The notes below the pieces were generated by a model. It ran no database searches and had not been told where the DNA came from. It worked only from the letters and a program-made list of their open reading frames with translations. A stretch of DNA of 62,660 nt, filler included, from Methanobacteriota archaeon (GTDB lineage Archaea; JACRDV01), in NCBI GenBank assembly GCA_024860865.1. It is 5 parts of 5 records of this genome, joined end to end, with 100 filler letters (N's around TTAATTAATTAA, not from the genome) between each part and the next. Parts side by side here need not be neighbours in the genome. Positions count along the whole stretch, not along the records: positions 58,941 to 62,660 come from JACRDV010000102.1; 4 more parts are not named here. The stretch is one strand, 5' to 3'. Of this stretch, positions 4,262 through 62,660 are shown piece by piece; within the stretch, counting starts at the first letter, position 1, and each line of letters starts with the position of its first letter. The position numbers and the translations under genes were made by a program.

Positions 4262-4360
4262 CACTCATTGAAAACTTTTAAATCACATGGACTTTTAAGT
4301 AACTCCTTTTTAATCTTAATCAGAAAGCTTTTACATAATGAAGCTTTAATTTCATTTAGT

Positions 4361-5962: not shown

Positions 5963-6088
5963 TTCTCTTCTCACAGGAACGGATATCAATAGAACAAAAG
6001 ATTTTTTCGCTCTTTTTTAGGAGAAAACTTTATACGTTTTGAAGAATATTTTAAAAATCTTAAGATATTCTGAATTTGGAGGTTAAAA

Positions 6089-6703
6089 ATGCCTGAGGAA
6101 GAGGTAGTTGTAGAGGGTGCCCTTCTAATACCGCTAGAAAAATACCTTGAAGCAGGTATTCACATAGGCACTCAGCAAAAGACTGGAGATATGGAGCCTT
6201 TCATTTATCGTGTTCGTTCTGATGGATTGTATGTTCTTGATGTGAAGAAAACTGACGAACGAATTAGAGCCGCTGGGAAGCTCCTTTCAAAGTATGACTC
6301 AAAAACAATTCTGGCCGTATCTGCTCGACAATATGGTCAAAAGCCAGTTCATAAATTTGCTGAAATTGTTGGAGCAACTGTTATACCTGGCAGATTTGTC
6401 CCTGGCACTCTAACTAATCCGAGCTTTAAGGGATTCATTGAGCCAGAAATTCTGCTAATTAGTGATCCTAGAGGGGATGCTCAGGCCCTAGAAGAGGCAA
6501 AACAAATTGGAATTCCAGTAATAGGTCTCTGCGATACTAACAGTTCTACTGCGAATATTGACCTGATCATCCCTTGCAACAATAAAGGCCGAAAAGCGTT
6601 AACTCTTGTATATTATTTGCTTGCTAGACAAATTATGCGAGAGCGCAATTTGATACCTGTTGAGGCCGAGCTCAGCGTTCCCATGGAAGCTTTTGAAAGT
6701 TAG
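6089..6703 (+). CDS. rps2: 30S ribosomal protein S2
   Basis: [24 protein letters not shown] and PCNNKGRK motifs. Confidence 0.97.
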
Positions 6704-6747
6704 CTCAAGAAATTTTAAATCTTAAGGATTAGCTATTCTTTTCAGGG

Positions 6748-7599
6748 ATGCTCGTGAAGATTAGAAGGCCAGCTGTATCTGGTCAATTTTATTGGTCAGA
6801 CCCCAAAGATCTCCTTGAACAAATTAGCGATTGTTATAAACATATACTTGGTCCAAGAAATTTGCCTGAAACAAAAGCAGGGCCAAGGAAAATTGTTGGG
6901 GCTGTTGCGCCTCATGCAGGTTATATGTACTCCGGCCCAGTGGCGGCCCACACCTATAATGAGCTTGCAGCTGATGGTATACCAGATACTGTTGTAATTA
7001 TTGGTCCAAATCATACGGGCGTAGGTTCAGGCGTTGCTATAATGGTTGAAGGTGCTTGGCAAACGCCATTAGGAACGGTTGAAATCGATTCTGATTTGGC
7101 AAAGCAAATCATAAAGAAAAGTGAAACGATAGATTCAGATGAAACAGCTCACTATTCTGAACATTCAATAGAAGTTCAGCTTCCATTTTTGCAACACATC
7201 TATAATGAAAAGTTCAAGTTCATTCCAATTTGTATGATGATGCAAGATCTAGACACAGCAAGGGAAGTTGGAAAAGCTATTGCTGTAGCTGCTAAAGATA
7301 AAAATGTCGTTATCCTGGCAAGTACAGATTTTACTCATTATGAATCTCAAAAAATTGCTCTTGACAAAGATTTGAAAGCAATCGATGCTATCATTAACTT
7401 AAACGAGACAAAATTAGTTGAGCGAGTTATTGGTTTGAATATATCTATGTGTGGATATGGTCCAGTTGCTGCAATGATTGTTGCTGCTAAAAATTTGCAA
7501 GCTAAAGAAGGTAAATTATTAAAATATGCAACCAGTGGCGACATAACTAATGACTACTCACATGTAGTAGGCTATGGTTCAATTGCGATAAGAAAGTAA
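6748..7599 (+). CDS. MEMO1 family protein (AmmeMemoRadiSam protein B)
   Basis: PHAGYMYSG, GPNHTG, EHSIEVQLPF, STDFTHY and MCGYGP motifs. Confidence 0.93.
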   Translation: MLVKIRRPAVSGQFYWSDPKDLLEQISDCYKHILGPRNLPETKAGPRKIVGAVAPHAGYMYSGPVAAHTYNELAADGIPDTVVIIGPNHTGVGSGVAIMVEGAWQTPLGTVEIDSDLAKQIIKKSETIDSDETAHYSEHSIEVQLPFLQHIYNEKFKFIPICMMMQDLDTAREVGKAIAVAAKDKNVVILASTDFTHYESQKIALDKDLKAIDAIINLNETKLVERVIGLNISMCGYGPVAAMIVAAKNLQAKEGKLLKYATSGDITNDYSHVVGYGSIAIRK

Positions 7600-7761
7600 G
7601 AAATTCAAACTAAGGAATTTTCTCTATTTTGGCAACCAGAAAAGAAATTTTCAAATATATTTGTTTTATTTATTTCGTATTAAAAACAACATTGTTTAAT
7701 TAAATGACAAAATATTTAAATATTCTTAAAAATTAAACTAAGAACGAAAGTAGCTCGGTTA

Positions 7762-7983
7762 ATGAAAGAGTCCTCTCCAAAGGTGCAAAAAATGCAGGAG
7801 AAAATTGAATATGAAGATGTTATTTTAGGAGAAATAGAAGATTTAAGAAAGAGGATAATTGAACAACGAAAATTGTTAGAGGAGTTACGAGAAAGAATTG
7901 ATACAGAGATGAAATTCGACTTAGAAAAATTAAAAGTTATAGAAAAACTTAGAAAAGAAAGATCAAATTTTATTCCAACTTAA
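7762..7983 (+). CDS. Small coiled-coil hypothetical protein
   Basis: Glu/Lys-rich heptad pattern; upstream TTTAAATA box. Confidence 0.55.
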   Translation: MKESSPKVQKMQEKIEYEDVILGEIEDLRKRIIEQRKLLEELRERIDTEMKFDLEKLKVIEKLRKERSNFIPT

Positions 7984-8009
7984 ATAAGAAAAACAATAAG
8001 GAGAAAAAG

Positions 8010-8276
8010 ATGGTGAGTAAAGAAGAATTAGAAGAGAAATTAAAAGAAGCAAAAACAGTTGAAGAGAAATTAAAAATAATGATTGAAACAGATGAAACTA
8101 TTTTAAAAGAGCTTAAGGAGCAGGGAGAGATGCTTGAAGAGCAAGGGAAAAGACTTGAGGAACAAAGAAAGAGGCTTGAGGCTCTTAGTTTTCAAACAAA
8201 AACCATCAAGGAATTATGGGGACTCTCTGTTGCAGAAAAAGCTATCGCAGCACCAACAAACCCTGGAAATAAATAA
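8010..8276 (+). CDS. Small coiled-coil hypothetical protein
   Basis: AGGAG Shine-Dalgarno; LEEQGKR-like heptad repeats. Confidence 0.65.
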   Translation: MVSKEELEEKLKEAKTVEEKLKIMIETDETILKELKEQGEMLEEQGKRLEEQRKRLEALSFQTKTIKELWGLSVAEKAIAAPTNPGNK

Positions 8277-8734
8277 TTGAAAATCTATTATTAAGTTATT
8301 TATTTGAAATGGTTTGAATCGATTGGGAATTCTTTATACAAAAGAAGACAAAAAGCATAAGTTTTCAAAAATCTATTATTAAAATTATTTTGAAAAATTT
8401 CCGTAAGTCTTTATATTTGAACGCATATGCTTGATATTATCGAAATATTTGGCGTCCGAATGACTTTAGAATTCTTTTTTGACTCGAGGGGTTCTTTTTC
8501 AAAATCTTCGCATTAACTCTTTTTCCTAAAGCTCGGTAATAATGAAGTAGAAAAAGAAAAAAGGAAAAAATAAAAGAATATGCGAGTTTTCTAAATTTGT
8601 TCATAATAAAGCGGAATTAAAAAAGCGGTATTATTGGTCACATGATCAATGCCATAAGTTTTTTCTTAATTTTAACATTTTAGTATAAACAAATCTAAAA
8701 TAGCCTACATTTGATATTTAAAAAAGTGAAAGAA

Positions 8735-9751
8735 ATGATAACTAGCTCAGCTCCAGGGAGTGTCAAACTTTTTTCAGAGCATGCTGTAGTTTATAACAGG
8801 CTTGGAATTACTGGGGCATTCGATAAGAGAGCTTATGCAAAAGTTTCTATTTCTGAAAAAAAAGTTAAAATACATTTAAAAGATTTTGGGGTTCAAAAAG
8901 AACTATCTGAAAAAGAAGTTGAAAAAATTTACACATCTATAAAAGAACTAATGAATAGAGAAGCAACCGAAGATATACTAAGGCTAGCTAAGAAAGATAT
9001 CGCTTTGCCACATGTTTTCATTATAGGGAATATTTTTCAAAAATTTGGGTACACCCCACTAAAAATTGAGATTCGATCTGAAATTCCAAGAAAGTCTGGT
9101 CTTGGATCCAGCGCAGCTGTTTTTGTAGCTTTGACTTATGCCATAAATAAAAATCTAAAACTAAAACTAAACAAAGAACAGATTGTAGAATTAGCAAATG
9201 AAGGGGACAAAGTTGTGCATGGAAAACCAAGTGGGGTTGATGTGAATACTTGCTTTTTTGGCGGATATATTAAATTTAAACAGTCTGAAGGCGCAAAACC
9301 TTTGGAAATAAAAACACAAGTACCTTTGGTTATCGCGGATACTGGAGTTTATAAAGATACTGGAACAATGGTTGCAGCTGTAGGAGGATTATATCAAAAA
9401 GACCCGAACGGGACAAACTCCATTTTTGATGAAATGGAAGCAATAGCGGTGAGTGGCTTAAAAGCCTTAAAAAAAGGAAATATTCGGGAATTAGGTGAAC
9501 TAATTAATCAAGCTCAAGATTGCTTGAGAAAATTGGGGGTTTCATCTCCAGAAATAGAGGAATTAATTAAAATTGCAAATAATAATGGGGCTTATGGCGC
9601 AAAATTAACAGGTGCTGGAGGAGGCGGTTGTATAATTGCAATAACAGAGCAACCACAACAGCTTACCAAAATTTTCAATAGATATGGTCACAATGCTTTT
9701 CAAACAAAGTTGGGAGTAAAAGGGGTAAATTCGAAAATCTATACCAGATGA
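8735..9751 (+). CDS. mvk: Mevalonate kinase
   Basis: APGSVKLFSEHAVVY, GLGSSAA, HGKPSGVD and KLTGAGGGG GHMP motifs; operon context. Confidence 0.92.
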   Translation: MITSSAPGSVKLFSEHAVVYNRLGITGAFDKRAYAKVSISEKKVKIHLKDFGVQKELSEKEVEKIYTSIKELMNREATEDILRLAKKDIALPHVFIIGNIFQKFGYTPLKIEIRSEIPRKSGLGSSAAVFVALTYAINKNLKLKLNKEQIVELANEGDKVVHGKPSGVDVNTCFFGGYIKFKQSEGAKPLEIKTQVPLVIADTGVYKDTGTMVAAVGGLYQKDPNGTNSIFDEMEAIAVSGLKALKKGNIRELGELINQAQDCLRKLGVSSPEIEELIKIANNNGAYGAKLTGAGGGGCIIAITEQPQQLTKIFNRYGHNAFQTKLGVKGVNSKIYTR

Positions 9752-12132: not shown

Positions 12133-12232
12133 NNNNNNNNNNNNNNNNNNNNNNNNNNNNNNNNNNNNNNNNNNNNTTAATTAATTAANNNNNNNNNNNN
12201 NNNNNNNNNNNNNNNNNNNNNNNNNNNNNNNN
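12133..12232. other. Artificial contig spacer
   Basis: N44-TTAATTAATTAA-N44, giving stops in all six frames. Confidence 0.98.
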
Positions 12233-28747: not shown

Positions 28748-28847
28748 NNNNNNNNNNNNNNNNNNNNNNNNNNNNNNNNNNNNNNNNNNNNTTAATTAAT
28801 TAANNNNNNNNNNNNNNNNNNNNNNNNNNNNNNNNNNNNNNNNNNNN
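28748..28847. other. Artificial contig spacer
   Basis: N44-TTAATTAATTAA-N44. Confidence 0.98.
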
Positions 28848-37048: not shown

Positions 37049-38002
37049 TTGAAAGGGATTATTATAAAAAATTGGCAAAAAATCGTGACAGTTACAATAA
37101 TTTTAATTTTTATTTTAGGAGCTTGGATTGCTTACAGAGAGCAGATAAAGCCAAAGACCGAAGCAGAATTTCCATTATTAGTTAAAGATGATTTAGGAAG
37201 AAGTGTTAAAATATCAAAGCAACCTGAGAGAGTAATTTCTTTAGCACCTAGTAACACAGAAATTCTTTTTGCTCTTGAACTGGGAGACAAAATTATAGCG
37301 GTAACTAAGTTTTGTGATTATCCACTTAACGCCACTAAAAAAGAAAAAATCGGCGGTTTTTCTGATATTAATATGGAGAAAGTTGTAGCTTTAAAACCAG
37401 ATTTAGTTTTAGCAACTGGAGGCGTGCAAGAGCAGATAGTTAAAGAGTTGGAAAGACTTAACATAACTGTGATAGCTCTCGATGCGAAGAATATTACTGA
37501 AATACTCGCGAATATCGAATTAGTTGGAAAAGTTACTGGCCAAGAAAAAAGTGCTCAAGAATTAACAACAAACATGAAACAAAGAATTAAAAAAATAACT
37601 GGAAAGACAAAAGACCTAACAAAAGCTCAAAAATTAAAAATTTACTATGAGGTATGGCATGATCCCTTAATGACAGCAGGTCCAGAAACATTTATTCACA
37701 ATATAATCGAGTTAGCTGGTGGAGTTAATATTTTTGCAGATGCTAAAATAAAATACCCGAGGATTGATCCAGAAACAATCCTTGCGCGCAATCCTGAAAT
37801 AATTATAACTAGTCTCGGTGCTATGGGAGGGGCAACAGCAGAACAAATCAAAACACGGCCTGGATGGAATAAAATAGATGCTGTAAAAAACAACAGGGTG
37901 TATGAAATCGATGAAAATATTCTCCGGCGACCCGGCCCGAGAATTATAGATGGTTTAGAAGCAATGGCTAAGATTATACATCCTGAGCTGTTTAGCAGAT
38001 GA
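37049..38002 (+). CDS. btuF: Cobalamin ABC transporter substrate-binding protein
   Basis: N-terminal anchor; PERVISLAPSNTEILFAL and RPGPRIIDG motifs. Confidence 0.88.
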   Translation: MKGIIIKNWQKIVTVTIILIFILGAWIAYREQIKPKTEAEFPLLVKDDLGRSVKISKQPERVISLAPSNTEILFALELGDKIIAVTKFCDYPLNATKKEKIGGFSDINMEKVVALKPDLVLATGGVQEQIVKELERLNITVIALDAKNITEILANIELVGKVTGQEKSAQELTTNMKQRIKKITGKTKDLTKAQKLKIYYEVWHDPLMTAGPETFIHNIIELAGGVNIFADAKIKYPRIDPETILARNPEIIITSLGAMGGATAEQIKTRPGWNKIDAVKNNRVYEIDENILRRPGPRIIDGLEAMAKIIHPELFSR

Positions 38003-38008
38003 TTAAAC

Positions 38009-39055
38009 GTGCATAATTATTTAAAACGAATTTTCCATTGGAAATTAATTATTATTAGTTTAACTGTGATTTTGGCATTGACGATCATTCTTTCAGCTGC
38101 ATTAGGTCCAGCCAATATACCTCCTTCAGTTATTCTGAAAATATTGGCCAGCAAAATCTCATTATTAAATAATCCTGCAAATTCTTTAGGCATTGAAGAG
38201 ACAATAGTTTTTGAAATTAGACTGCCGCGCATAATTTTAGCAATGTTAGTAGGAGCAGCCCTTTCAGTTGCAGGGGTTACATTTCAAGGTTTATTTAAAA
38301 ACCCAATGGCAGATCCTTATGTAATTGGGGTTTCTTCTGGAGCAGCTCTAGGAGCCACTTTAGCCGTGGTTCTAGGACTTGAGCTAGAGTTCTTTGGGTT
38401 GAGTTCTATTCCATTGATGGCGTTTATTGGCGCTCTTACGGCTACTTTCATGGTTTACAATATCGCAAAAGTAGGGCATACATTACCAGTGTCAACGTTG
38501 TTATTATCTGGTATAGCTGTAGGTTCTTTTCTATCCGCGATCACTATGCTCATAATGATGATGGCTGGCGAGAGATTACACCAAATTGTCTTCTGGCTAA
38601 TGGGAGGCCTGTCAGCGCGTAACTGGAGCCATGTGAAAATGGTATTACCTTTCATTTTTCTTGGCACAGCAATTATTTACTTCTTCGCTCGAGATCTAAA
38701 CATAATGTTACTGGGTGAGGAATCTGCACAGCATTTAGGTATAGAAGTTAAGAAACTCACCAAGATAATGCTAGTCTTTGCTTCTTTGATAGCAGCTGCA
38801 GCTGTATCTGTTAGTGGATTAATTGGATTCATTGGTTTAGTAGTTCCGCATATAATGAGAATTTTGGTTGGGCCGGATCACCGCATTCTTCTTCCATCTT
38901 CCGCTATTGCTGGAAGTATAATTTTAATCACATCTGATACTGTAGCCCGCACAGCGATTTCTTCAACTGAAATACCAGTAGGTATTATTACGGCATTTTT
39001 TGGCGCGCCATTTTTTATCTATCTTTTGCGCAAGAGAAAAAGTTCTATCTCTTAG
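38009..39055 (+). CDS. btuC: Cobalamin/iron-chelate ABC transporter permease
   Basis: IRLPR, FKNPMADPYVIGVSSGA and GFIGLVVPH motifs. Confidence 0.9.
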   Translation: MHNYLKRIFHWKLIIISLTVILALTIILSAALGPANIPPSVILKILASKISLLNNPANSLGIEETIVFEIRLPRIILAMLVGAALSVAGVTFQGLFKNPMADPYVIGVSSGAALGATLAVVLGLELEFFGLSSIPLMAFIGALTATFMVYNIAKVGHTLPVSTLLLSGIAVGSFLSAITMLIMMMAGERLHQIVFWLMGGLSARNWSHVKMVLPFIFLGTAIIYFFARDLNIMLLGEESAQHLGIEVKKLTKIMLVFASLIAAAAVSVSGLIGFIGLVVPHIMRILVGPDHRILLPSSAIAGSIILITSDTVARTAISSTEIPVGIITAFFGAPFFIYLLRKRKSSIS

Positions 39056-51967: not shown

Positions 51968-52067
51968 NNNNNNNNNNNNNNNNNNNNNNNNNNNNNNNNN
52001 NNNNNNNNNNNTTAATTAATTAANNNNNNNNNNNNNNNNNNNNNNNNNNNNNNNNNNNNNNNNNNNN
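51968..52067. other. Artificial contig spacer
   Basis: N44-TTAATTAATTAA-N44. Confidence 0.98.
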
Positions 52068-55625: not shown

Positions 55626-56018
55626 TTCCTATTTTTTAAAAATAGATTGCAAAATTCATTTTAAAGCTCGAATATTTTCTAATATTTTTATAGATCACTA
55701 GTAAAATACCGTTTGCTTTATTTAGCTTATGGTAAATTGTAAATCACAAATACCTTCGGTCGCTGCAAGGCAGGGTTGGACTTGAGCTTACAAGTATTTG
55801 TGAGTTTCTTTTGCAACTTCTGCCAACTCCTAATTTTAACGCAAAAAGAGACATGAAAGTATGCTGCCATTTAAAACAAACAAACCCAGAAATACTATTT
55901 AACTACCTAGGTTTTAACAGATTTTATAGCAATGGGAAGGTTGAAATTTATACCACCGTGGGTATTAAATCCCTAAAAGAAAAAATTATTTATCATAATA
56001 TGATTATAAAATCCTAAT

Positions 56019-56603
56019 ATGATGAAAATCTTAGATGAAGTATTAGGCTCTGGAACCAAAATTCGAGCCCTTAGAGTTCTTGTGCTTAACCCAACAGAAT
56101 CTTACTATGAAACTGAGCTCGCAAACTTAGCAAGTGTCCCACAATCTAGTTTACATGTTGAAATTGAAATTTGGTATGAAATCGGGCTTGTAAATATAAT
56201 CAAAATGGGTAAACTAAATTTTATTTCGATTGATCAAACCCACTGGTTATATCCTATTTTGAAAAAATTATTTGAATCTGAGAAATTCGCAATAGAGAAA
56301 GCAATTCAAGAATTTGTTTATAAAATCAAACAAGAACTTGGCTCTGATATTAAAAAAATTGTTATATTCGGTTCGGCAGCTCGAAAAGAGATGCGAGTAC
56401 TAAGCGATATTGATATCATAATTGTTGTATCTAATAAAGCTAATTTAAAAATTGTTGAAGATAAACTTGCTGAGATCAGGTTGCTCTTTTTAAATAAACA
56501 TTTTTGGTTTGAAACTATTGTTTACTCAGAATCAGAGTTTAGCAACGAATCTCAATCACTCTTTTTAAGAAATGTAAGGACAGAAGGCATAGTTTATGAA
56601 TGA
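56019..56603 (+). CDS. wHTH plus MNT antitoxin
   Basis: IFGSAAR...SDIDI motif; N-terminal HTH. Confidence 0.87.
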   Translation: MMKILDEVLGSGTKIRALRVLVLNPTESYYETELANLASVPQSSLHVEIEIWYEIGLVNIIKMGKLNFISIDQTHWLYPILKKLFESEKFAIEKAIQEFVYKIKQELGSDIKKIVIFGSAARKEMRVLSDIDIIIVVSNKANLKIVEDKLAEIRLLFLNKHFWFETIVYSESEFSNESQSLFLRNVRTEGIVYE

Positions 56604-56964
56604 GATTTCCGAAATTAAAGATTATTTAACAATAGCAAAAAGAGATTTTGAAACAGCAACAAAAATTTTAGAATATAACCCAGATGTATCAATTTTCATA
56701 TTTATATTGGCGATGGAAGCAGCCGCTAAAAGCATTTTAGTTTCTAAAGGCGTTGCAAGATTGCCAAAAACACACATGGGTTTATTTAGCCTTTTAAGGG
56801 AAAGTGTAGCTGAACTGGGAGGTCTCCTTAAGGATTATTCAAAAATTTTGGCCATGCGAGCAAAAGCTGGTTATAGAACTAAACCTGTCTACGATGTGAA
56901 TCAGGCAGCACAAGTTCAGGCTAAAGTTAAGGTTTTTATTGAGACAGTTGAACGCTTAGTTTAG
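56596..56964 (+). CDS. HEPN domain protein
   Basis: AMEAAAKS, PKTH and R-x4-Y (RAKAGY) motifs. Confidence 0.85.
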   Translation: MNEISEIKDYLTIAKRDFETATKILEYNPDVSIFIFILAMEAAAKSILVSKGVARLPKTHMGLFSLLRESVAELGGLLKDYSKILAMRAKAGYRTKPVYDVNQAAQVQAKVKVFIETVERLV

Positions 56965-57003
56965 CTTCTATTCAGCAATTCTCTATTTCTAACCTACTCT
57001 AGA

Positions 57004-57363
57004 TTACTTTTCAATAGCTTCAACTAAAAAGCGCCTATTATCTAAAGGAATTAACTTTACTTTCTTTCCTTTTACTATGTTTAGGTGGTGTGCTAGATCT
57101 TCAGGGATATTTATTACCAATGATCGGCCCGAAATAGTAATTTTTCTTTCAAAGGCAAAAATATGGGCTTTTAATTGTTCTGTTCGCTTTTCAATTTCTT
57201 CAACTTGTTCTGGCGTGAAAATGAATTCACGGCATTTAGGGCATTCAAAGGCTTTTACATTGCGAAGCGGAAAACCTTCTATATACTCATATGTATCCAA
57301 AACAATCTCCTTAGCATTTTTGCCACATTTTTTACAAATCAATTTCATCTTCTCTTTCTCCAA
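57004..57363 (-). CDS. YgiT/MqsA-type Zn finger fused to AbrB domain (antitoxin)
   Basis: CKKC...NVKAFECPKCRE and SGRSLVINIP motifs. Confidence 0.85.
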   Translation of the reverse strand: MEKEKMKLICKKCGKNAKEIVLDTYEYIEGFPLRNVKAFECPKCREFIFTPEQVEEIEKRTEQLKAHIFAFERKITISGRSLVINIPEDLAHHLNIVKGKKVKLIPLDNRRFLVEAIEK

Positions 57364-57581
57364 TAAATAGTTATAAGTTCTTCTTCACTTTTTTTGTTCC
57401 AAAGCCATACTGCGATTAAACTTTTATTACCAAAATCTATTTTGCTATAGTTCTTTGTTCCAAAGCGTCCATTGATTTCACTAAAAATAACTTCACCATT
57501 CTTTATAACTTCAATTGCTTCAAATTCGTTTATTCCTCGCTTTTCCATCTGTTTTCTAGCATGTTTTGGAATTACTACCAA
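57345..57581 (-). CDS. DUF4258 / RelE-like toxin
   Basis: HARKQMEKRGI and LITIY motifs; palindrome TCACTTATT-T-AATAAGTGA at 57596-57614 upstream. Confidence 0.8.
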   Translation of the reverse strand: MVVIPKHARKQMEKRGINEFEAIEVIKNGEVIFSEINGRFGTKNYSKIDFGNKSLIAVWLWNKKSEEELITIYWRKRR

Positions 57582-57639
57582 TCAATCACTTTTTATCACT
57601 TATTTAATAAGTGAATATTTAAAACTTTTTCTGTTCTAA

Positions 57640-57924
57640 AGAGCCATTTCAGCGCACTTTCAACTTCTTCTTTTCTTACAGATTTTGTAGAGAGAGAAAA
57701 TTCCAAAGCAACAGTATTTGAATTAAAAGATAAGCTTGTGCATTATGGGATTTTAAAGCCTACTAAAAAAGTTGGGCATATACAGCTATATAAATTCAAT
57801 AAAGAAAGTCTAGCCGGAAAAAAACTCAATAGGCTATTCTACGAACTAGCTGATATTGATATATCCATTTGTCGAAAAAGAAGAAGTTAAAGAAGAGATT
57901 CACAAAGCAAAAATAGAAGCGTGA
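57640..57924 (+). pseudogene. Decayed winged-HTH gene
   Basis: SKATVFELKDKLVHYGILKPTKKVGHIQLYKFNKES with no start codon and a frameshift before EKEEVKEEIHKAKIEA-TGA. Confidence 0.5.
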
Positions 57925-58170
57925 CCCCTTCCAACGCTAAAGCTTAGGCACCACTTCAAGAACTCGCTCCGTTGCCGGAGGCGCAGGTCCGCTTCAGTGC
58001 TTACGATGCTTTCGAGGTTGGTGCCTTTGCTCGGCTATCGTTTGTCTTCTTTTCCCCACAGGAGCCCAAAGTGCTAAAGCCTCACCCTACCCAAACTCGC
58101 TTTGCACTTTCACTGTGGGAGATCGCAACTTGCCCGCCTGCCTCGTGACGTATAGCCGCAGGCCTGGTGT
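57921..58170 (-). ncRNA. GC-rich multi-stem structured element resembling an IS200/IS605 right-end (TnpB omega/reRNA-like) scaffold
   Basis: At least five perfect stems and a GCAA tetraloop; the minus strand ends GCTTTAGCGTTGGAAGGGGTCAC; no ORF. Confidence 0.55.
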
Positions 58171-58435
58171 TTTTGATAAAAAACTTGCGAGAAGAGAACT
58201 TAACGAGAAATCATTTGTAAATATCTAAGCAAACTATTTTCTAACCCTGAGTTGGTAGAACAACGGCCAAGAATGGGCGAATATTTGAGAACGTAAATAT
58301 GATTGGTTAAAAAATTGCTGAGAGATAGTATACGAAAAAGTCATTAAAAGATGCGCGTAGCTTTATGGAACGTTAAAATAATCTAAAGAGATTCGGCATC
58401 GAAAAATTAGAAATAATAGTTAGAGAAAAAATTCT

Positions 58436-58840
58436 CTATGGAGTTATCCTAATTTCAGATTTTAGGATATCCTTTAGAGCTTTTGCAATTTTCTCAGGGA
58501 GAGTATCCATTTTTTTATCTATACTATCCAGCTTATTATCCATGCTATCCAACTTACCATTCATACTATCCAGTTTACCATTCATGCTATCAAGTTTACC
58601 ATTCATGCCATCCAACTTACCATCCATCTTGCCCAATTTATTACTGATGTCTTCCAAGTAATCAACGCCTTTTCCCACTTGATTTAAAATTAGAGCTTGA
58701 GAAGATCTCATTGCCTTTGGAACTGGTTCCTCTACATCAAATTGAATTTCGTTTACTACTGGATTCTCTGCCAACTTTGGTTTTTCTTTTTTCACATCTT
58801 CATAAAATTTCATTATTGTATCCTTATCTCCTTCCACCAA
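58436..58840 (-). CDS. Acylphosphatase-like domain tail plus heptad-repeat coiled coil (5' end truncated)
   Basis: VEGDKDTIMKFYE..KP..A resembles an acylphosphatase C-terminal half; KLDSMNG repeats; LPEKIA ending. Confidence 0.6.
   Translation of the reverse strand: MVEGDKDTIMKFYEDVKKEKPKLAENPVVNEIQFDVEEPVPKAMRSSQALILNQVGKGVDYLEDISNKLGKMDGKLDGMNGKLDSMNGKLDSMNGKLDSMDNKLDSIDKKMDTLPEKIAKALKDILKSEIRITP
58508..58639. repeat. Degenerate 21-bp in-frame tandem repeat, about 6 units
   Basis: Encodes KLGKMDG-KLDGMNG-KLDSMNG-KLDSMNG-KLDSMDN-KLDSIDK. Confidence 0.85.
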
Positions 58841-58940
58841 NNNNNNNNNNNNNNNNNNNNNNNNNNNNNNNNNNNNNNNNNNNNTTAATTAATTAANNNN
58901 NNNNNNNNNNNNNNNNNNNNNNNNNNNNNNNNNNNNNNNN
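58841..58940. other. Artificial contig spacer
   Basis: N44-TTAATTAATTAA-N44. Confidence 0.98.
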
Positions 58941-61276
58941 ATAACATACACATTTGCCTTTGGGAATTGTTTTTTAAGCTGGCGAGCATTTTTGATTGCT
59001 ACCATACAGCATATTCTCGAGCAGTAAGTTCTACCTTCTTTCTCTCTTGCTCCCACGCACTGAATCATTGCTATGTTTTTTGGCTCTTGTAGTTTATTCT
59101 CAGCAATGAGTCTTTCAAGCTCAAGTTGAGTTATTACATTCTTGTATTTTCCATAACCATACATACCCTTTGGTTCAAAGGGTTTTGCACCAGTTGCAAC
59201 AATTATTGTTCCAACAGTTATTTTTTCTTCTTTGCCTGCTTTATCAAGAGTTACTTCAAAATTTCCGACATAACCTTTCACATGTTTAATGCTGGTAGAA
59301 GTGTAAAGAATAATATTTTTATTTTCTTCGATATTTTTTATCACAGAATTTAACAATTCATTAGCTTTCATGTTATCAGGAAATAAAGTATCCATATCTC
59401 GAATTAAACCGCCGAGCTTTTCAGTCTTTTCAACCAAGTAAACCTTGAACCCTTGGTTGGCTATGTTTAAAGCAGCAGTCATACCAGATATTCCAGCCCC
59501 AATAACGAGGGAGGATGGGTTGATTTGCACTTCTTTTTCGTATCTGGGTTCCAGAAGTCTTGCTTTTGCAACAGCCATTCTAACTAGTTCCAGTGCTTTC
59601 TTTGTGGCGTGTTTAGGATCGCCCATATGAACCCAAGAACACTGGTCTCGAATATTTGCCATTTCAAAAAGATATGGATTCAATCCAACTTCTCGACAGG
59701 TCTCTCTGAATAATGGCTCGTGAGTTCTAGGCGTGCAAGAAGCTACAACAACTCTGTTCAAGTTATGCTCTTTTATTCTTGCTTTTATCCCTTCTATAGC
59801 ATCTGCAGAGCAAGTAAATAGATTATGTTCAGCATAAACAACATTCGGCAGCGTTTTAGCGTACTTTGCTACTTTTGGGACATCTAAATAACCGCCGATA
59901 TTTAATCCGCAACTGCACACAAAAACGCCAACTCTATGTTCTTGGCCCCTAACATCTATCTCCTCTGGATATTCTTTTTCTATGTTAGAAGGGAAAACAA
60001 ACATCGATGCTCTAGCTGCTGCTCCACTTGCTTGAGCAACCGAGTCAGGAATATCCCTTGGACCACTACTAACACCACAAGCATAAATGCCTGGTTTAAT
60101 TGTGTCGATGGGACTGATAAGAGGATTTAGTTCTTTAACAAAACCATATTCATCAAGGGATATTCCCAATTTCTCAGCTAACTCATTAATACCTTTTTTT
60201 GGAAAAGTAGCTGTAGATAAAACAACCAAATCTACTTCCATTTTTTTAAATTTCTTTTCTTTCTGGTCTTCATATTTTATAATTAAACTACCATTATTTG
60301 ATTGTTCTATGGCACTTGGAATGCCTTTGATATAGTTTATTTTGTATTCATCCCTTGCCTTTTTATAAAATTCCTCAAAATTTTTTCCTACAGTACGAAT
60401 GTCAATATAAAAAATGTTAATTTCTTCTAACGATTTTTCATGTTCTTTCGCAGAGATAGCTTCTTTTGTTGAATATGTACAGCAAATTCGTGAACAATAT
60501 GGCTTATTTTTATCCCGGCACCCGACGCATTGTATGTAAGCGATTTTACGCGCTACTTTTCCATCTGATGGCCGCAGTAACCTTCCTTTAGTTGGTCCTG
60601 AAGCACTTAATAGCCTTTCAAAATCCAGTGCTGTTAAAACATTCTTGTAAACGCCATATCCATATTCAAGCATATTACGTGGCTCATAATAATCGCCACC
60701 TACCGCGATGATAATTGATCCCACATTTACCTCAACTTCATTGGCTTTCATATCATAATCTATTGCACCAGGTCCACAAACAATCTTGCATTGGCCGCAT
60801 CCTATGCAGTGCTCTTTGTCTATAGTGTATTTTAGGGGAACTGCTTGGGGAAATGGTGTATATATGGCCTTTCTTATGCCAAGCTTTTGATCAAATTCGT
60901 TCGGTACTTTAATCTTACAGACTTGCGAACATAACCCACAACCATTGCACTTTTCTTCTTTCACATAACGTGGTTTTCTCTCTATTTTTACGGTGAAATT
61001 GCCTGGTTGCCCTTTAACTTCATTAACTTCTGAATACATGAGTAATTTTATATTAGGGTGGCGTGAGCAGTCAATCATTTTCGGGGCTAAGATTCATATT
61101 GCACAATCCATAGTTGGAAATGTTTTATCTAACTGAGCCATAACTCCTCCTAAACTTGGGGTTTTTTCAACTAAGTAAACTTGGCATCCTTGACTAGCTA
61201 AGTCTAGCGAAGCTTGAATGCCGGCTATACCTCCACCTATTACGAGGGCCGAACTAGAAGAGATTTGAAATGCCAT
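58941..61276 (-). CDS. hdrA: Tandem-domain heterodisulfide reductase subunit A; selenoprotein candidate (TGA at codon 61, 61094-61096); 3' end truncated
   Basis: ORF-track entries 61094-61276 and 58889-61078 lie in one frame: GGGIAG...[30 protein letters not shown]. Also ferredoxin insert, YCSRICC twice, GVFVCSCG and [10 protein letters not shown]. Confidence 0.93.
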
Positions 61277-61365
61277 CTTACTTCCTCCCTCTTTTAAAAT
61301 TCTGTGTCTGAGTGCTTAATTTCTCGTTAGGAATCTTGATTAACAGGGACTTTGCAGGTTCAATT

Positions 61366-61404
61366 CTCATGCTGTGATTCTGTTTGATTCTCACAGCACT
61401 CATT
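61366..61404 (-). promoter_or_regulatory. Candidate SECIS element within a larger hairpin (61298-61461) upstream of hdrA
   Basis: Minus strand AUGA-GUGCUGUGA-GAA-UC-AAACA-GA-A-UCACAGCAU-GA-G. Confidence 0.7.
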
Positions 61405-61484
61405 GCTGTTTTTCTTCTTCATCTTCCTAAGATTATTTTTAAGCACCTCAGGTACAGAATTATTCAATAATCATTGCAATCTTC

Positions 61485-61808
61485 CTATAATTTATTTTGA
61501 GGTCTTTGTTTGCGATATAAATTAACGAACCCATAAAAATTAATTTTATAACGGCAACTTTCTACGCATCGAGGTCTGCTTGCAGGTATTATAGTACCAT
61601 TGACATTGAGTTCTTTGCACATATTGCACTTTTCAAGCATCTTTTCGTCTAATTCAAACCCGATGTTAAGTTTTCTTATTATTACTCTTGGAGAGAAAGA
61701 TTCGTCAATAAATTCTGCTATTCGACAACTACCTACGCATTTTCCGCAGTCAATACACTTATATAAATGAGTTTTTTTAATCAAATCCTCAAGATCAGTT
61801 TGAATCAT
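61485..61808 (-). CDS. Small HdrC-like 4Fe-4S protein
   Basis: CIDCGKCVGSC, FSPR and CNMC...CVESC motifs. Confidence 0.75.
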   Translation of the reverse strand: MIQTDLEDLIKKTHLYKCIDCGKCVGSCRIAEFIDESFSPRVIIRKLNIGFELDEKMLEKCNMCKELNVNGTIIPASRPRCVESCRYKINFYGFVNLYRKQRPQNKL

Positions 61809-61823
61809 AGTTCTTTCCTCATC

Positions 61824-62660
61824 TTATGTGTAGTAGGGCACGTATTTGCCCTCTTTTCCTCTAAGCTCTGAGACAACTTTTCTTTTTTCTTTTTTTAATG
61901 AGACGTTCTTTTTGATTTCATTCAATTCGACTCTTTTTTCAACCTCGACATAGCCGAGCTCTTCCGCTTTTGTGAGTAAGTTGATGCCTTTTTGAGTTCT
62001 AACAATTACAGTGGACCAACCTGCTGGAGTGCCTACTGATCCTACGCTAATGTCTGAGAACTCAGCAGTGAAGTTACAGCACAACTTGCAAGATTCAGGT
62101 ACACATTCTTCAAAAGCTTTAACAGATTTTTCAACTTGACCATTTTTTGTGTAAACGATAAACTTACCTTTTTTAATATCTGTTTTAATTATCTGATCCA
62201 TTTGTATGTTAAATTTGGATTCAATCGTCCTTCTCAGCCCATCATATGGAAAATTCTCAAAACAAAATAATCCTATTAAAAGGAAATCTAAAGGATTTTC
62301 AGACTCAGATGTTATCTCCAATAGATTTTTTAAGAATGAAATTTGAGTCTTTCTTGCGCCAGTTATTTGGCAACCTGTGCCAACTAGAGCTAACCGAGAT
62401 AACTCTTGTAACGATCTACCTAATTTCATTGATGTAGCTGTTCTTGTATATTTAGTTCCAGCCGCTTGCAAAAGTTCTTCCTTGCTCTTAGCTATGATTG
62501 GGCTTGTATCCCAATTATTAAATCTAGTCGCAACTACTGCACCGTCGATTAATTTGTTTTCTAAGGCACACAGTAAAAGTGAAGTTACTGCTCCACCATC
62601 TTGAGCTTTTTCTAAAATTTCTGGTATTTTGGATCTTACTGCCAGAATCTTTTTGTAATA
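61824..62660 (-). CDS. FrhB/FdhB family F420-interacting subunit; starts beyond the window end
   Basis: Frame is open to 62660: AQDGGAVTSLL, AAGTKY, VGTGCQ, IGLFCFENF, CKLC and DISVGSVG motifs. Confidence 0.92.
   Translation of the reverse strand, partial: YYKKILAVRSKIPEILEKAQDGGAVTSLLLCALENKLIDGAVVATRFNNWDTSPIIAKSKEELLQAAGTKYTRTATSMKLGRSLQELSRLALVGTGCQITGARKTQISFLKNLLEITSESENPLDFLLIGLFCFENFPYDGLRRTIESKFNIQMDQIIKTDIKKGKFIVYTKNGQVEKSVKAFEECVPESCKLCCNFTAEFSDISVGSVGTPAGWSTVIVRTQKGINLLTKAEELGYVEVEKRVELNEIKKNVSLKKEKRKVVSELRGKEGKYVPYYT

Follow-up and report, generated by a model that had tools for sequence, protein, structure and literature searches.

A candidate Asgard-type SECIS element in the spacer upstream of a tandem-type hdrA gene with an in-frame UGA

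The tandem-type hdrA locus and its in-frame UGA

The window, the whole stretch of 62,660 nucleotides analysed here, is a chain of joined contigs. A contig-joining spacer of 44 N, TTAATTAATTAA, and 44 N, which is not biological sequence, lies at positions 58841-58940, and the same block is also found at 12133, 28748, and 51968. The minus strand of the last piece (58941-62660) carries three genes and one spacer. The first gene is frhB/fdhB-like (61824-62660; PF04422 and PF04432), its 5' end is open at the window edge, and an in-frame TGA is absent from its visible 278 aa. The ORF that follows encodes an HdrC-like Fe-S protein of 107 aa (61485-61808, minus strand), likewise without an in-frame TGA and with TAG as its stop codon. 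A 208-nt spacer (61277-61484), in which the longest T run is 4, separates this small Fe-S gene from a tandem-type hdrA with two FAD/HdrA-like modules (58941-61276, minus strand). A GGAGG ribosome-binding site, read from the sequence, is located at 61284-61288, 7 nt 5' of the hdrA AUG. The contig stops inside frhB at one end and inside hdrA at the other (position 58941), where 778 of about 1030 residues are visible; the 3' side of hdrA is outside view, as the earlier note on this DNA had remarked. The rest of hdrA, as well as mvhD, was sought elsewhere in the window and is not present there, and the window contains no tRNA genes.

Codon 61 of hdrA is an in-frame UGA (61094-61096, minus strand), read as selenocysteine from its alignment column. 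The frame is open for 60 aa before the TGA and for 717 aa after it. The codon falls in the Cys/Sec column of HdrA, in which 257 aligned segments have Cys and 42 segments of the known type of Sec-hdrA have TGA. All 42 TGA segments belong to standard HdrA of ~650 aa (motif FPTDDC..U). When 400 Asgard genomes were searched with the pattern U-I-L-A-P-K-M, 22 sites were obtained, and 19 of the 20 inspected lie in standard hdrA of ~650 aa. The hdrA of the window is the only tandem-type HdrA with Sec that we have seen, all tandem-type relatives examined carrying Cys, and the locus extends the known forms of HdrA by a tandem-type one with Sec. TGA is also an ordinary stop in the window, where it ends 13 of 40 hand-picked ORFs (at least 150 aa, plus the 107-aa Fe-S ORF; overlapping and contig-end ORFs were left out). 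Alignment and reading frame together indicate that the UGA at 61096-61094 is a site of specific recoding.

The HdrA of the window is 50% identical to a relative of 1028 aa (locus L034) over residues 4-790. An orthologue search in genome and metagenome contigs gave 54% as the best identity among the matches listed, and the six nearest tandem hdrA genes by N-terminal identity among those listed (67-72%) do not share the frhB-Fe-S synteny. The tandem-type HdrA relatives are ~1030 aa long and are followed by mvhD (L034, and partly L030). In L034, the one relative whose spacer was read, the preceding gene abuts the tandem hdrA.

Fold of the spacer hairpin and its core

Sequence, fold, and a covariance model (R2, below) place a putative SECIS core of the kink-turn type (AUGA/GA) on the minus strand of the spacer at 61367-61403. 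It consists of AUGA (61403-61400), the 5' arm of a helix, GUGCUGUGA (61399-61391), a 13-nt apical loop, GAAUCAAACAGAA (61390-61378), the 3' arm, UCACAGCAU (61377-61369), and GA directly after that arm (61368-61367). The upper helix GUGCUGUGA/UCACAGCAU has 9 bp with no mismatch and one G-U pair, and the pairing probability of all nine pairs is 0.977-0.999. In the minimum-energy fold of the 43-nt core (-12.3 kcal/mol, z -2.6), an AAACA loop is closed by a 2-bp UC/GA mini-stem, which is set off from the 9-bp stem by GAA facing A. The earlier note had drawn exactly this motif, including the flanking AUGA and GA; the pairs of the mini-stem have a probability of only ~0.5. The loop begins with GAAUC, carries a second AAA at loop positions 6-8, and ends in A.

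The core is located at the tip of a 164-nt hairpin (61461-61298, minus strand), whose boundaries were picked by eye and which adds three further helices with internal loops. These basal helices, AAUUCUGU/ACAGAAUU, GUGCUUAA/UUAAGCAC, and UUAGGAA/UUCCUAA, had been proposed beforehand and are all predicted, with probabilities mostly above 0.9. The AACAG/CUGUU helix that was also proposed is absent from the predicted fold, which has CAG/CUG (probability 0.66) and CAAU/AUUG (probability 0.9) instead. Folded alone, the 164-nt hairpin has an energy of -45.6 kcal/mol (z -6.2), a stability reached by none of 200 shuffles; the entire 208-nt spacer (z -3.2) is equalled by a single one of 200 shuffles. 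Between the end of the hairpin and the hdrA AUG (61276) there are 21 nt, and the core lies 127 nt upstream of the hdrA start and 271-307 nt upstream of the UGA, values that agree with the distances first estimated for them (~20 nt for the hairpin end and ~270-300 nt for the motif). An internal promoter may be present inside the 3' arm of the hairpin.

No repeat of the hairpin was detected in the window, and no homologue in 160 related loci (L001-L160). No close relative of the locus was found among the matches listed, so that neither conservation nor covariation can be cited for the element itself. With flanks of 62 nt on each side, the candidate forms 34 flank-to-flank pairs, whereas 38 reference Asgard SECIS form at most 31 (median 11), which makes its basal hairpin the longest among the Asgard SECIS compared. 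Long basal pairing is common in Asgard SECIS, and the candidate is an extreme case.

Covariance models and comparison with known SECIS classes

Two covariance models of Asgard SECIS were applied. With the first (R1), which was built from 20 Loki/Hel elements, the candidate scored 8.5 bits locally and was not listed in the window-wide search. R1 also recovered none of the hdrA-proximal SECIS of other Asgard lineages when 18 of the loci L168-L186 and L052 were searched, while a descriptor found 12 such elements in the 19 loci L168-L186. R1 is thus too narrow, and a low R1 score says little. The second model (R2) was built from 37 elements of ~30 loci from other genomes, all lying after Sec-hdrA or Sec-vhuD. 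Because its training set was chosen with a pairing descriptor, the 95% pairing of that set is partly circular; the positions after Sec genes are independent evidence. The candidate (61406-61364) is the top R2 match of the window with 20.7 bits (E 0.0061), followed by a runner-up with 14.8 bits. True elements outside the training set score 19.4-35 bits, and a held-out element in L052 scores 26.3 bits.

R2 was also run on larger sets of sequences. In 166 loci (1.8 Mb) it gave 21 matches of at least 26 bits, all of them SECIS after vhuD, and two weak matches of 15-16 bits, with nothing between. In five Sec-using Asgard genomes (20.6 Mb) it gave 18 matches, ~14 of which follow TGA-containing ORFs, and in five genomes of a small Asgard class it gave none. 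An Rfam covariance search of positions 56000-62660 with E up to 10 returned no SECIS family, in agreement with the reported failure of standard tools on lokiSECIS (PMC4989117, cited here and below from its accessible text, as are PMC11227280 and PMC11881835).

The Asgard eSECIS-like family comprises lokiSECIS (Mariotti et al. 2016, PMC4989117) and types I and II (Huang et al. 2024, PMC11227280). Its core, 5'-(AU)GA...[G/A]A-3' around an upper stem, is present in the candidate as AUGA and GA. The upper stem of the family has 7-15 bp with at most two mismatches, and the 9 bp of the candidate equal the length in lokiSECIS; the folding energy of the core, -12.3 kcal/mol, is well under the family limit of -5 kcal/mol. 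The 13-nt apical loop fits type I (8-20 nt). With its mini-stem formed, the loop also fits type II, which has a mini-stem of 2-8 bp, a bulge of 4-12 nt, and a loop of 2-6 nt; the corresponding values are 4 nt (GAA/A), 2 bp (probability ~0.5), and 5 nt. A basal helix, a loop opening in purines and adenines, the association with hdrA, and a significant R2 score are likewise shared with the family. The family definition also asks for a host with the archaeal Sec machinery (tRNA-Sec, EFSec, PSTK, SepSecS, SPS); the window has no tRNA.

The differences from the family concern the loop and the position. Where the unpaired adenines of the 5' loop side appear in the references as NNAAA or NGAAAG, the candidate has GAAUC. 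The 37-sequence reference alignment has two invariant A columns; the adenines of the candidate do not line up with them and lie one position nearer the helix. The last loop base is A, whereas G is conserved in Loki, and the loop has 13 nt compared with 11 nt in Loki and 10-17 nt in other Asgard lineages. Asgard eSECIS-like elements are positioned just downstream of a selenoprotein coding sequence, within ~600 nt of the Sec gene, whereas the candidate is upstream of hdrA and the visible ORFs upstream of it have no in-frame TGA.

Other SECIS classes share parts of this pattern. The GAA_A asymmetric bulge between two stems, typical of euryarchaeal SECIS (eaSECIS), is present in the fold of the core; the euryarchaeal apical stem, which in the Huang model has 3-6 bp with at least three consecutive G-C/C-G pairs, is not, its place being taken by U-A and C-G with a probability of ~0.5. 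AUGA/GA together with GAA/A has been described for methanococcal hdrA/vhuD SECIS (PMC4989117; PMC11227280). Like the candidate, the hdrA/vhuD SECIS of Methanococcales and Methanopyrus have AUGA...GA and a GAA/A internal loop; unlike it, they have a G-C apical stem, a G-C-rich basal stem of 10 bp, and a location in the 3' UTR. Eukaryotic SECIS (RF00031), which are 3' UTR elements (PMC4989117), resemble the candidate in the AUGA/GA core, the unpaired apical adenines, and the succession of helix 1 and helix 2, but helix 2 of the candidate is shorter (9 bp) and Rfam gave no match at E up to 10.

For the position, there is a parallel in the 5'-UTR SECIS of Methanococcales fdhA1 (Wilting 1997, cited in PMC4989117; tested in Peiter et al. 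2025, PMC11881835). That element is also 5' of its UGA and well apart from the ribosome-binding site, the distance being ~75 nt for the candidate and kept at >60 nt in the fdhA1 reporter (PMC11881835). It differs in being of the euryarchaeal GAA/A type and in having flanks that can pair with the coding sequence 3' of its UGA; for the candidate, the longest such Watson-Crick run reaches 8 nt, the same as the mean of shuffled sequences (8.0). A lokiarchaeal SECIS did not function in Methanococcus maripaludis (PMC11881835). No bacterial-type SECIS hairpin was found directly 3' of the hdrA UGA; a stretch of 70 nt starting at the UGA has a folding energy of -1.1 kcal/mol (z +1.5).

The candidate is a member or a close variant of the known Asgard eSECIS-like family. 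Of the first interpretation of this element, the SECIS-type identity stands, as the top R2 match located 5' of a gene with a UGA at the Sec/Cys position of HdrA. The proposal of a new hybrid or intermediate class does not: the element fits Asgard types I and II, the combination of AUGA/GA with GAA/A is already published, and the apical stem is not that of euryarchaeal SECIS. What is new and unusual is the position upstream of the gene, together with the target gene, a Sec-containing tandem hdrA.

The gene served, alternative readings, and the host

In standard Sec-hdrA loci from several Asgard lineages, SECIS elements are found directly after hdrA and/or vhuD and before the frhB-like gene (19 of 19 loci, L168-L186). 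Two elements are present in 12 of these loci, and in none of the 19 was a SECIS found within ~950 nt upstream of the standard Sec-hdrA. In 19 Loki/Hel loci, Sec-hdrA, Sec-vhuD, the SECIS, and an frhB-like gene come in this order, and a Cys-type tandem hdrA is located further downstream. The complete arrangement was read for L034 and, in part, for L030: a second frhB and an hdrB/C-like gene precede the tandem hdrA, which mvhD follows. R2 gave no match beside the start of a Cys-type tandem hdrA in 166 loci, and the sole Sec-type tandem hdrA seen has one. The 5' position of the candidate is unprecedented for the Asgard SECIS family. The accessible literature proposes Asgard SECIS as ancestors of eukaryotic SECIS, and all the cases it reports follow the coding sequence. 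Downstream regions alone were covered by the published surveys, as their accessible text describes them; the scan of Huang 2024 (PMC11227280) began 30 nt before the 3' end of the gene and stopped 600 nt after it. We found no 5' Asgard SECIS in the published text consulted; the supplementary SECIS lists of PMC4989117 and PMC11227280 may include Sec tandem hdrA or SECIS-less genes.

The UGA of hdrA is 307 nt from the element, whereas an upstream Sec codon could be no nearer than 1258 nt, beyond two genes that do not encode selenoproteins. Because the UGA is near the start of an hdrA of ~3.1 kb, with mvhD next in relatives, a 3' SECIS for it would have to be ~3 kb or more away. In addition, the SECIS of relatives precedes frhB, so that selenoprotein genes further upstream would have their own SECIS, which favours action on hdrA from the 5' side. 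There is also a precedent, as a 5'-UTR SECIS functions in M. maripaludis (PMC11881835). From this arrangement of sequences, we consider it somewhat probable that the candidate acts from the 5' side on the hdrA UGA, possibly among other targets. Synteny suggests that it would be an extra element, placed where the tandem hdrA became a Sec gene. The hdrA mRNA would then include the spacer, which would be a long leader or a part of an operon transcript spanning frhB, the Fe-S gene, and hdrA. Once folded, the element would recruit the Sec-specific elongation factor, directly or via an adaptor, and Sec-tRNA would be delivered from the 5' side to the UGA 307 nt downstream. Distance may explain the 5' placement, given a UGA at the start of so long a gene.

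A genuine Asgard-type SECIS could instead serve, in the 3' sense, a selenoprotein gene upstream of frhB past the window end, with hdrA using a SECIS downstream of hdrA-mvhD. Every Asgard SECIS that we located lies downstream of the gene it serves, and one Loki SECIS serves UGA codons ~2 kb upstream across a second gene (PMC4989117). A Helarchaeota tandem hdrA cluster (G001) ends with Sec-vhuD and a SECIS, and the 208-nt spacer ends in a hairpin followed by UUUU, all of which speaks for this reading. The element would then be at least 1258 nt past any selenoprotein stop, against an observed range of ~-70 to +700 nt, with the two visible genes free of in-frame TGA in between. Moreover, the SECIS of Sec-hdrA/vhuD is before frhB in both sets of 19 syntenic loci, and no Cys-type tandem hdrA locus has a SECIS at the position of the candidate. 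We regard service to an unseen upstream gene alone as rather unlikely.

Action on hdrA presupposes that the tip of the hairpin is a SECIS and not a look-alike. The hairpin could be a structured intercistronic element (a processing or stability element, a weak terminator, or an L7Ae-type kink-turn site) with a SECIS-like tip by chance. Such a coincidence is improbable when measured against the frequency of matches. A descriptor defined as ATGA, nine perfect pairs with at most one G-U, a loop of 9-15 nt, and then GA or AA has one match in the window, compared with a mean of 0.047 per shuffled window (300 dinucleotide shuffles, 4.3% of which contain any match). In 1.77 Mb of related archaeal loci the perfect descriptor has 12 matches, and at least eight of them are known SECIS directly after Sec-vhuD. 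R2 does produce false positives of similar score genome-wide, with ~4 probable ones (19.6-24.6 bits) in the 20.6 Mb of the Sec-using genomes. This empirical rate of ~4 per 41 Mb of strand corresponds to ~2e-5 for the 208-nt spacer next to the only Sec codon of the window; it agrees with the E-value, and a chance match inside the hdrA spacer is therefore very unlikely. The element without conservation, the R1 and Rfam results without significance, and the basal hairpin of extreme length compared with known SECIS would fit a look-alike. So would a weak Rfam match to the C/D-box family snR66 over the hairpin (25.6 bits against a gathering score of 65, E 1.2), which was judged spurious; by eye, a CUGA D box is absent downstream of the C-like box. 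Taken together, the tip of the hairpin is very probably a real element of the SECIS family.

A SECIS at this site might still work as a functional intermediate, in which the GAA/A loop with its mini-stem, a kink-turn-like motif of methanococcal SECIS, and the AUGA/GA core are both required. The core fold has GAA opposite A and a 2-bp mini-stem, and in M. maripaludis both A's of GAA must be kept for function (PMC11881835). An Asgard SECIS with the same succession of stem, GAA(A), mini-stem, A, and stem is found at L171:2898-2946. The mini-stem, however, has a probability of ~0.5, and the clamp consists of U-A and C-G only, while weakening a 2-bp apical clamp in M. maripaludis cost ~60% or all of the activity (PMC11881835). 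An open 13-nt loop fits type I equally well, and the motif combination had been published already. A dual requirement of this kind seems to us quite improbable.

That the hdrA TGA is a true stop, by way of a pseudogene, a split gene, or an assembly error, is hardly credible: the assembly is a draft metagenome, the tandem-type hdrA of all relatives examined has Cys, and the L001 gene is split in two by TAA, but the TGA falls exactly in the Cys/Sec column, between open stretches of 60 and 717 aa, with a match to the SECIS family 271 nt away.

The wider proposal is that a eukaryote-like SECIS acts from a 5' leader or spacer and was recruited when a Cys-type tandem HdrA turned into a selenoprotein, in a host that may be outside the described Sec-using archaea. 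We hold this combined proposal as plausible, just short of probable. If true, the lineage from which the eukaryotic SECIS arose would gain its first member that acts from upstream and independently of position, and the Asgard SECIS lineage, like the methanococcal one, would not be bound to position. Some of the ~15% of Asgard selenoprotein genes without a detected SECIS may then have been searched on the wrong side. The locus would also be a natural case of a Cys enzyme becoming a selenoenzyme by gaining a SECIS near the 5' end of its gene.

The window carries the archaeal markers RqcH_arch, ABCE1/RLI, and Fae-Hps. ABCE1 is 47-58% identical to its counterparts in Asgard, Bathyarchaeia, Thermoplasmatota-labelled, and Methanobacteriota-labelled genomes (samples of 121, 201, and 201), and its best match is in a five-genome Asgard class. 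The N-terminus of hdrA is closest, among the matches listed, to Bathyarchaeia-labelled records (66-71%). The host may belong outside the described Sec-using archaeal groups. No RNA sequencing runs are listed as holding the sequence; DNA sequencing runs that hold it come from three studies, including a groundwater metagenome.

Number of SECIS-like elements and gene order in Asgard Sec-hdrA loci

Published accounts, in the portions available, describe a single SECIS shared by each hdrA/vhuD gene pair. A descriptor search (ATGA, paired stem, apical loop, GA or AA) found two SECIS-like elements in 12 of the 19 non-Loki Asgard Sec-hdrA loci (L168-L178 and L182), as exemplified by L173, with elements at 2943 and 3472. 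In these 12 loci, one element lies directly 3' of hdrA and the other follows vhuD. The gene order Sec-hdrA, Sec-vhuD, SECIS, frhB-like (one or two copies), hdrB/C-like, tandem hdrA and mvhD is kept across L168-L186 and the Loki/Hel loci, being seen complete in L034 (1-9550) and in the remaining loci over the parts probed.

SECIS-like hairpins in other contexts

Conserved AUGA...GA hairpins also occur inside coding sequences. In Loki Sec-hdrA, a hairpin with a stem of 8-9 bp, including several G-U pairs, and a loop of 11-13 nt lies about 900 nt from the gene start (L024:935-969, L055:2022-2056, L056:2011-2045, L113:924-958, and L122:966-1000). R2, the covariance model built from 37 Asgard SECIS elements located after Sec-hdrA or Sec-vhuD, reported no match to it. 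Another hairpin, with a stem of 10-12 bp, is conserved in the second frhB-like coding sequence of L005, L015, L034, and L044 (at approximately 4283-4340); R2 gives no match here either, which makes a conserved feature of the coding sequence the probable explanation. R2 did score an intergenic segment at 23.7 bits (L193:3013-3051, corresponding to G046:C6:802912-802950), and no evident selenoprotein gene was found nearby. This match is either a false positive or a SECIS serving an unrecognised gene.

In the window, the AUG within the AUGA of the candidate SECIS opens a 41-codon ORF (61403-61278, minus strand), whose TAA stop is separated from the hdrA start codon by 1 nt. Its own start lacks a clear ribosome-binding site ahead of it. 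This ORF may have arisen by chance or may be a leader ORF coupled to hdrA.

In-frame stops in other genes and contig joints

L001 is a Bathyarchaeota record and gives the best match for HdrA overall; in it, a TAA at 7309-7311 divides the tandem hdrA (5989-8754) into two genes. At window 37049-39055 (plus strand), genes for an ABC-transporter binding protein and permease share a frame with a single TGA between them; the arrangement resembles Sec read-through, but these are two ordinary adjacent ABC-transporter genes. The window is five draft-genome contigs linked by six-frame-stop spacers, each of the four blocks (12133-12232, 28748-28847, 51968-52067, and 58841-58940) having TTAATTAATTAA between two runs of 44 N; therefore, genes flanking a block are not neighbours. 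Homologues of the window marker protein ABCE1 in four Asgard genomes each carry one TGA within the matched frame (G004:C137, G087:C420, G069:C95, and G052:C51).
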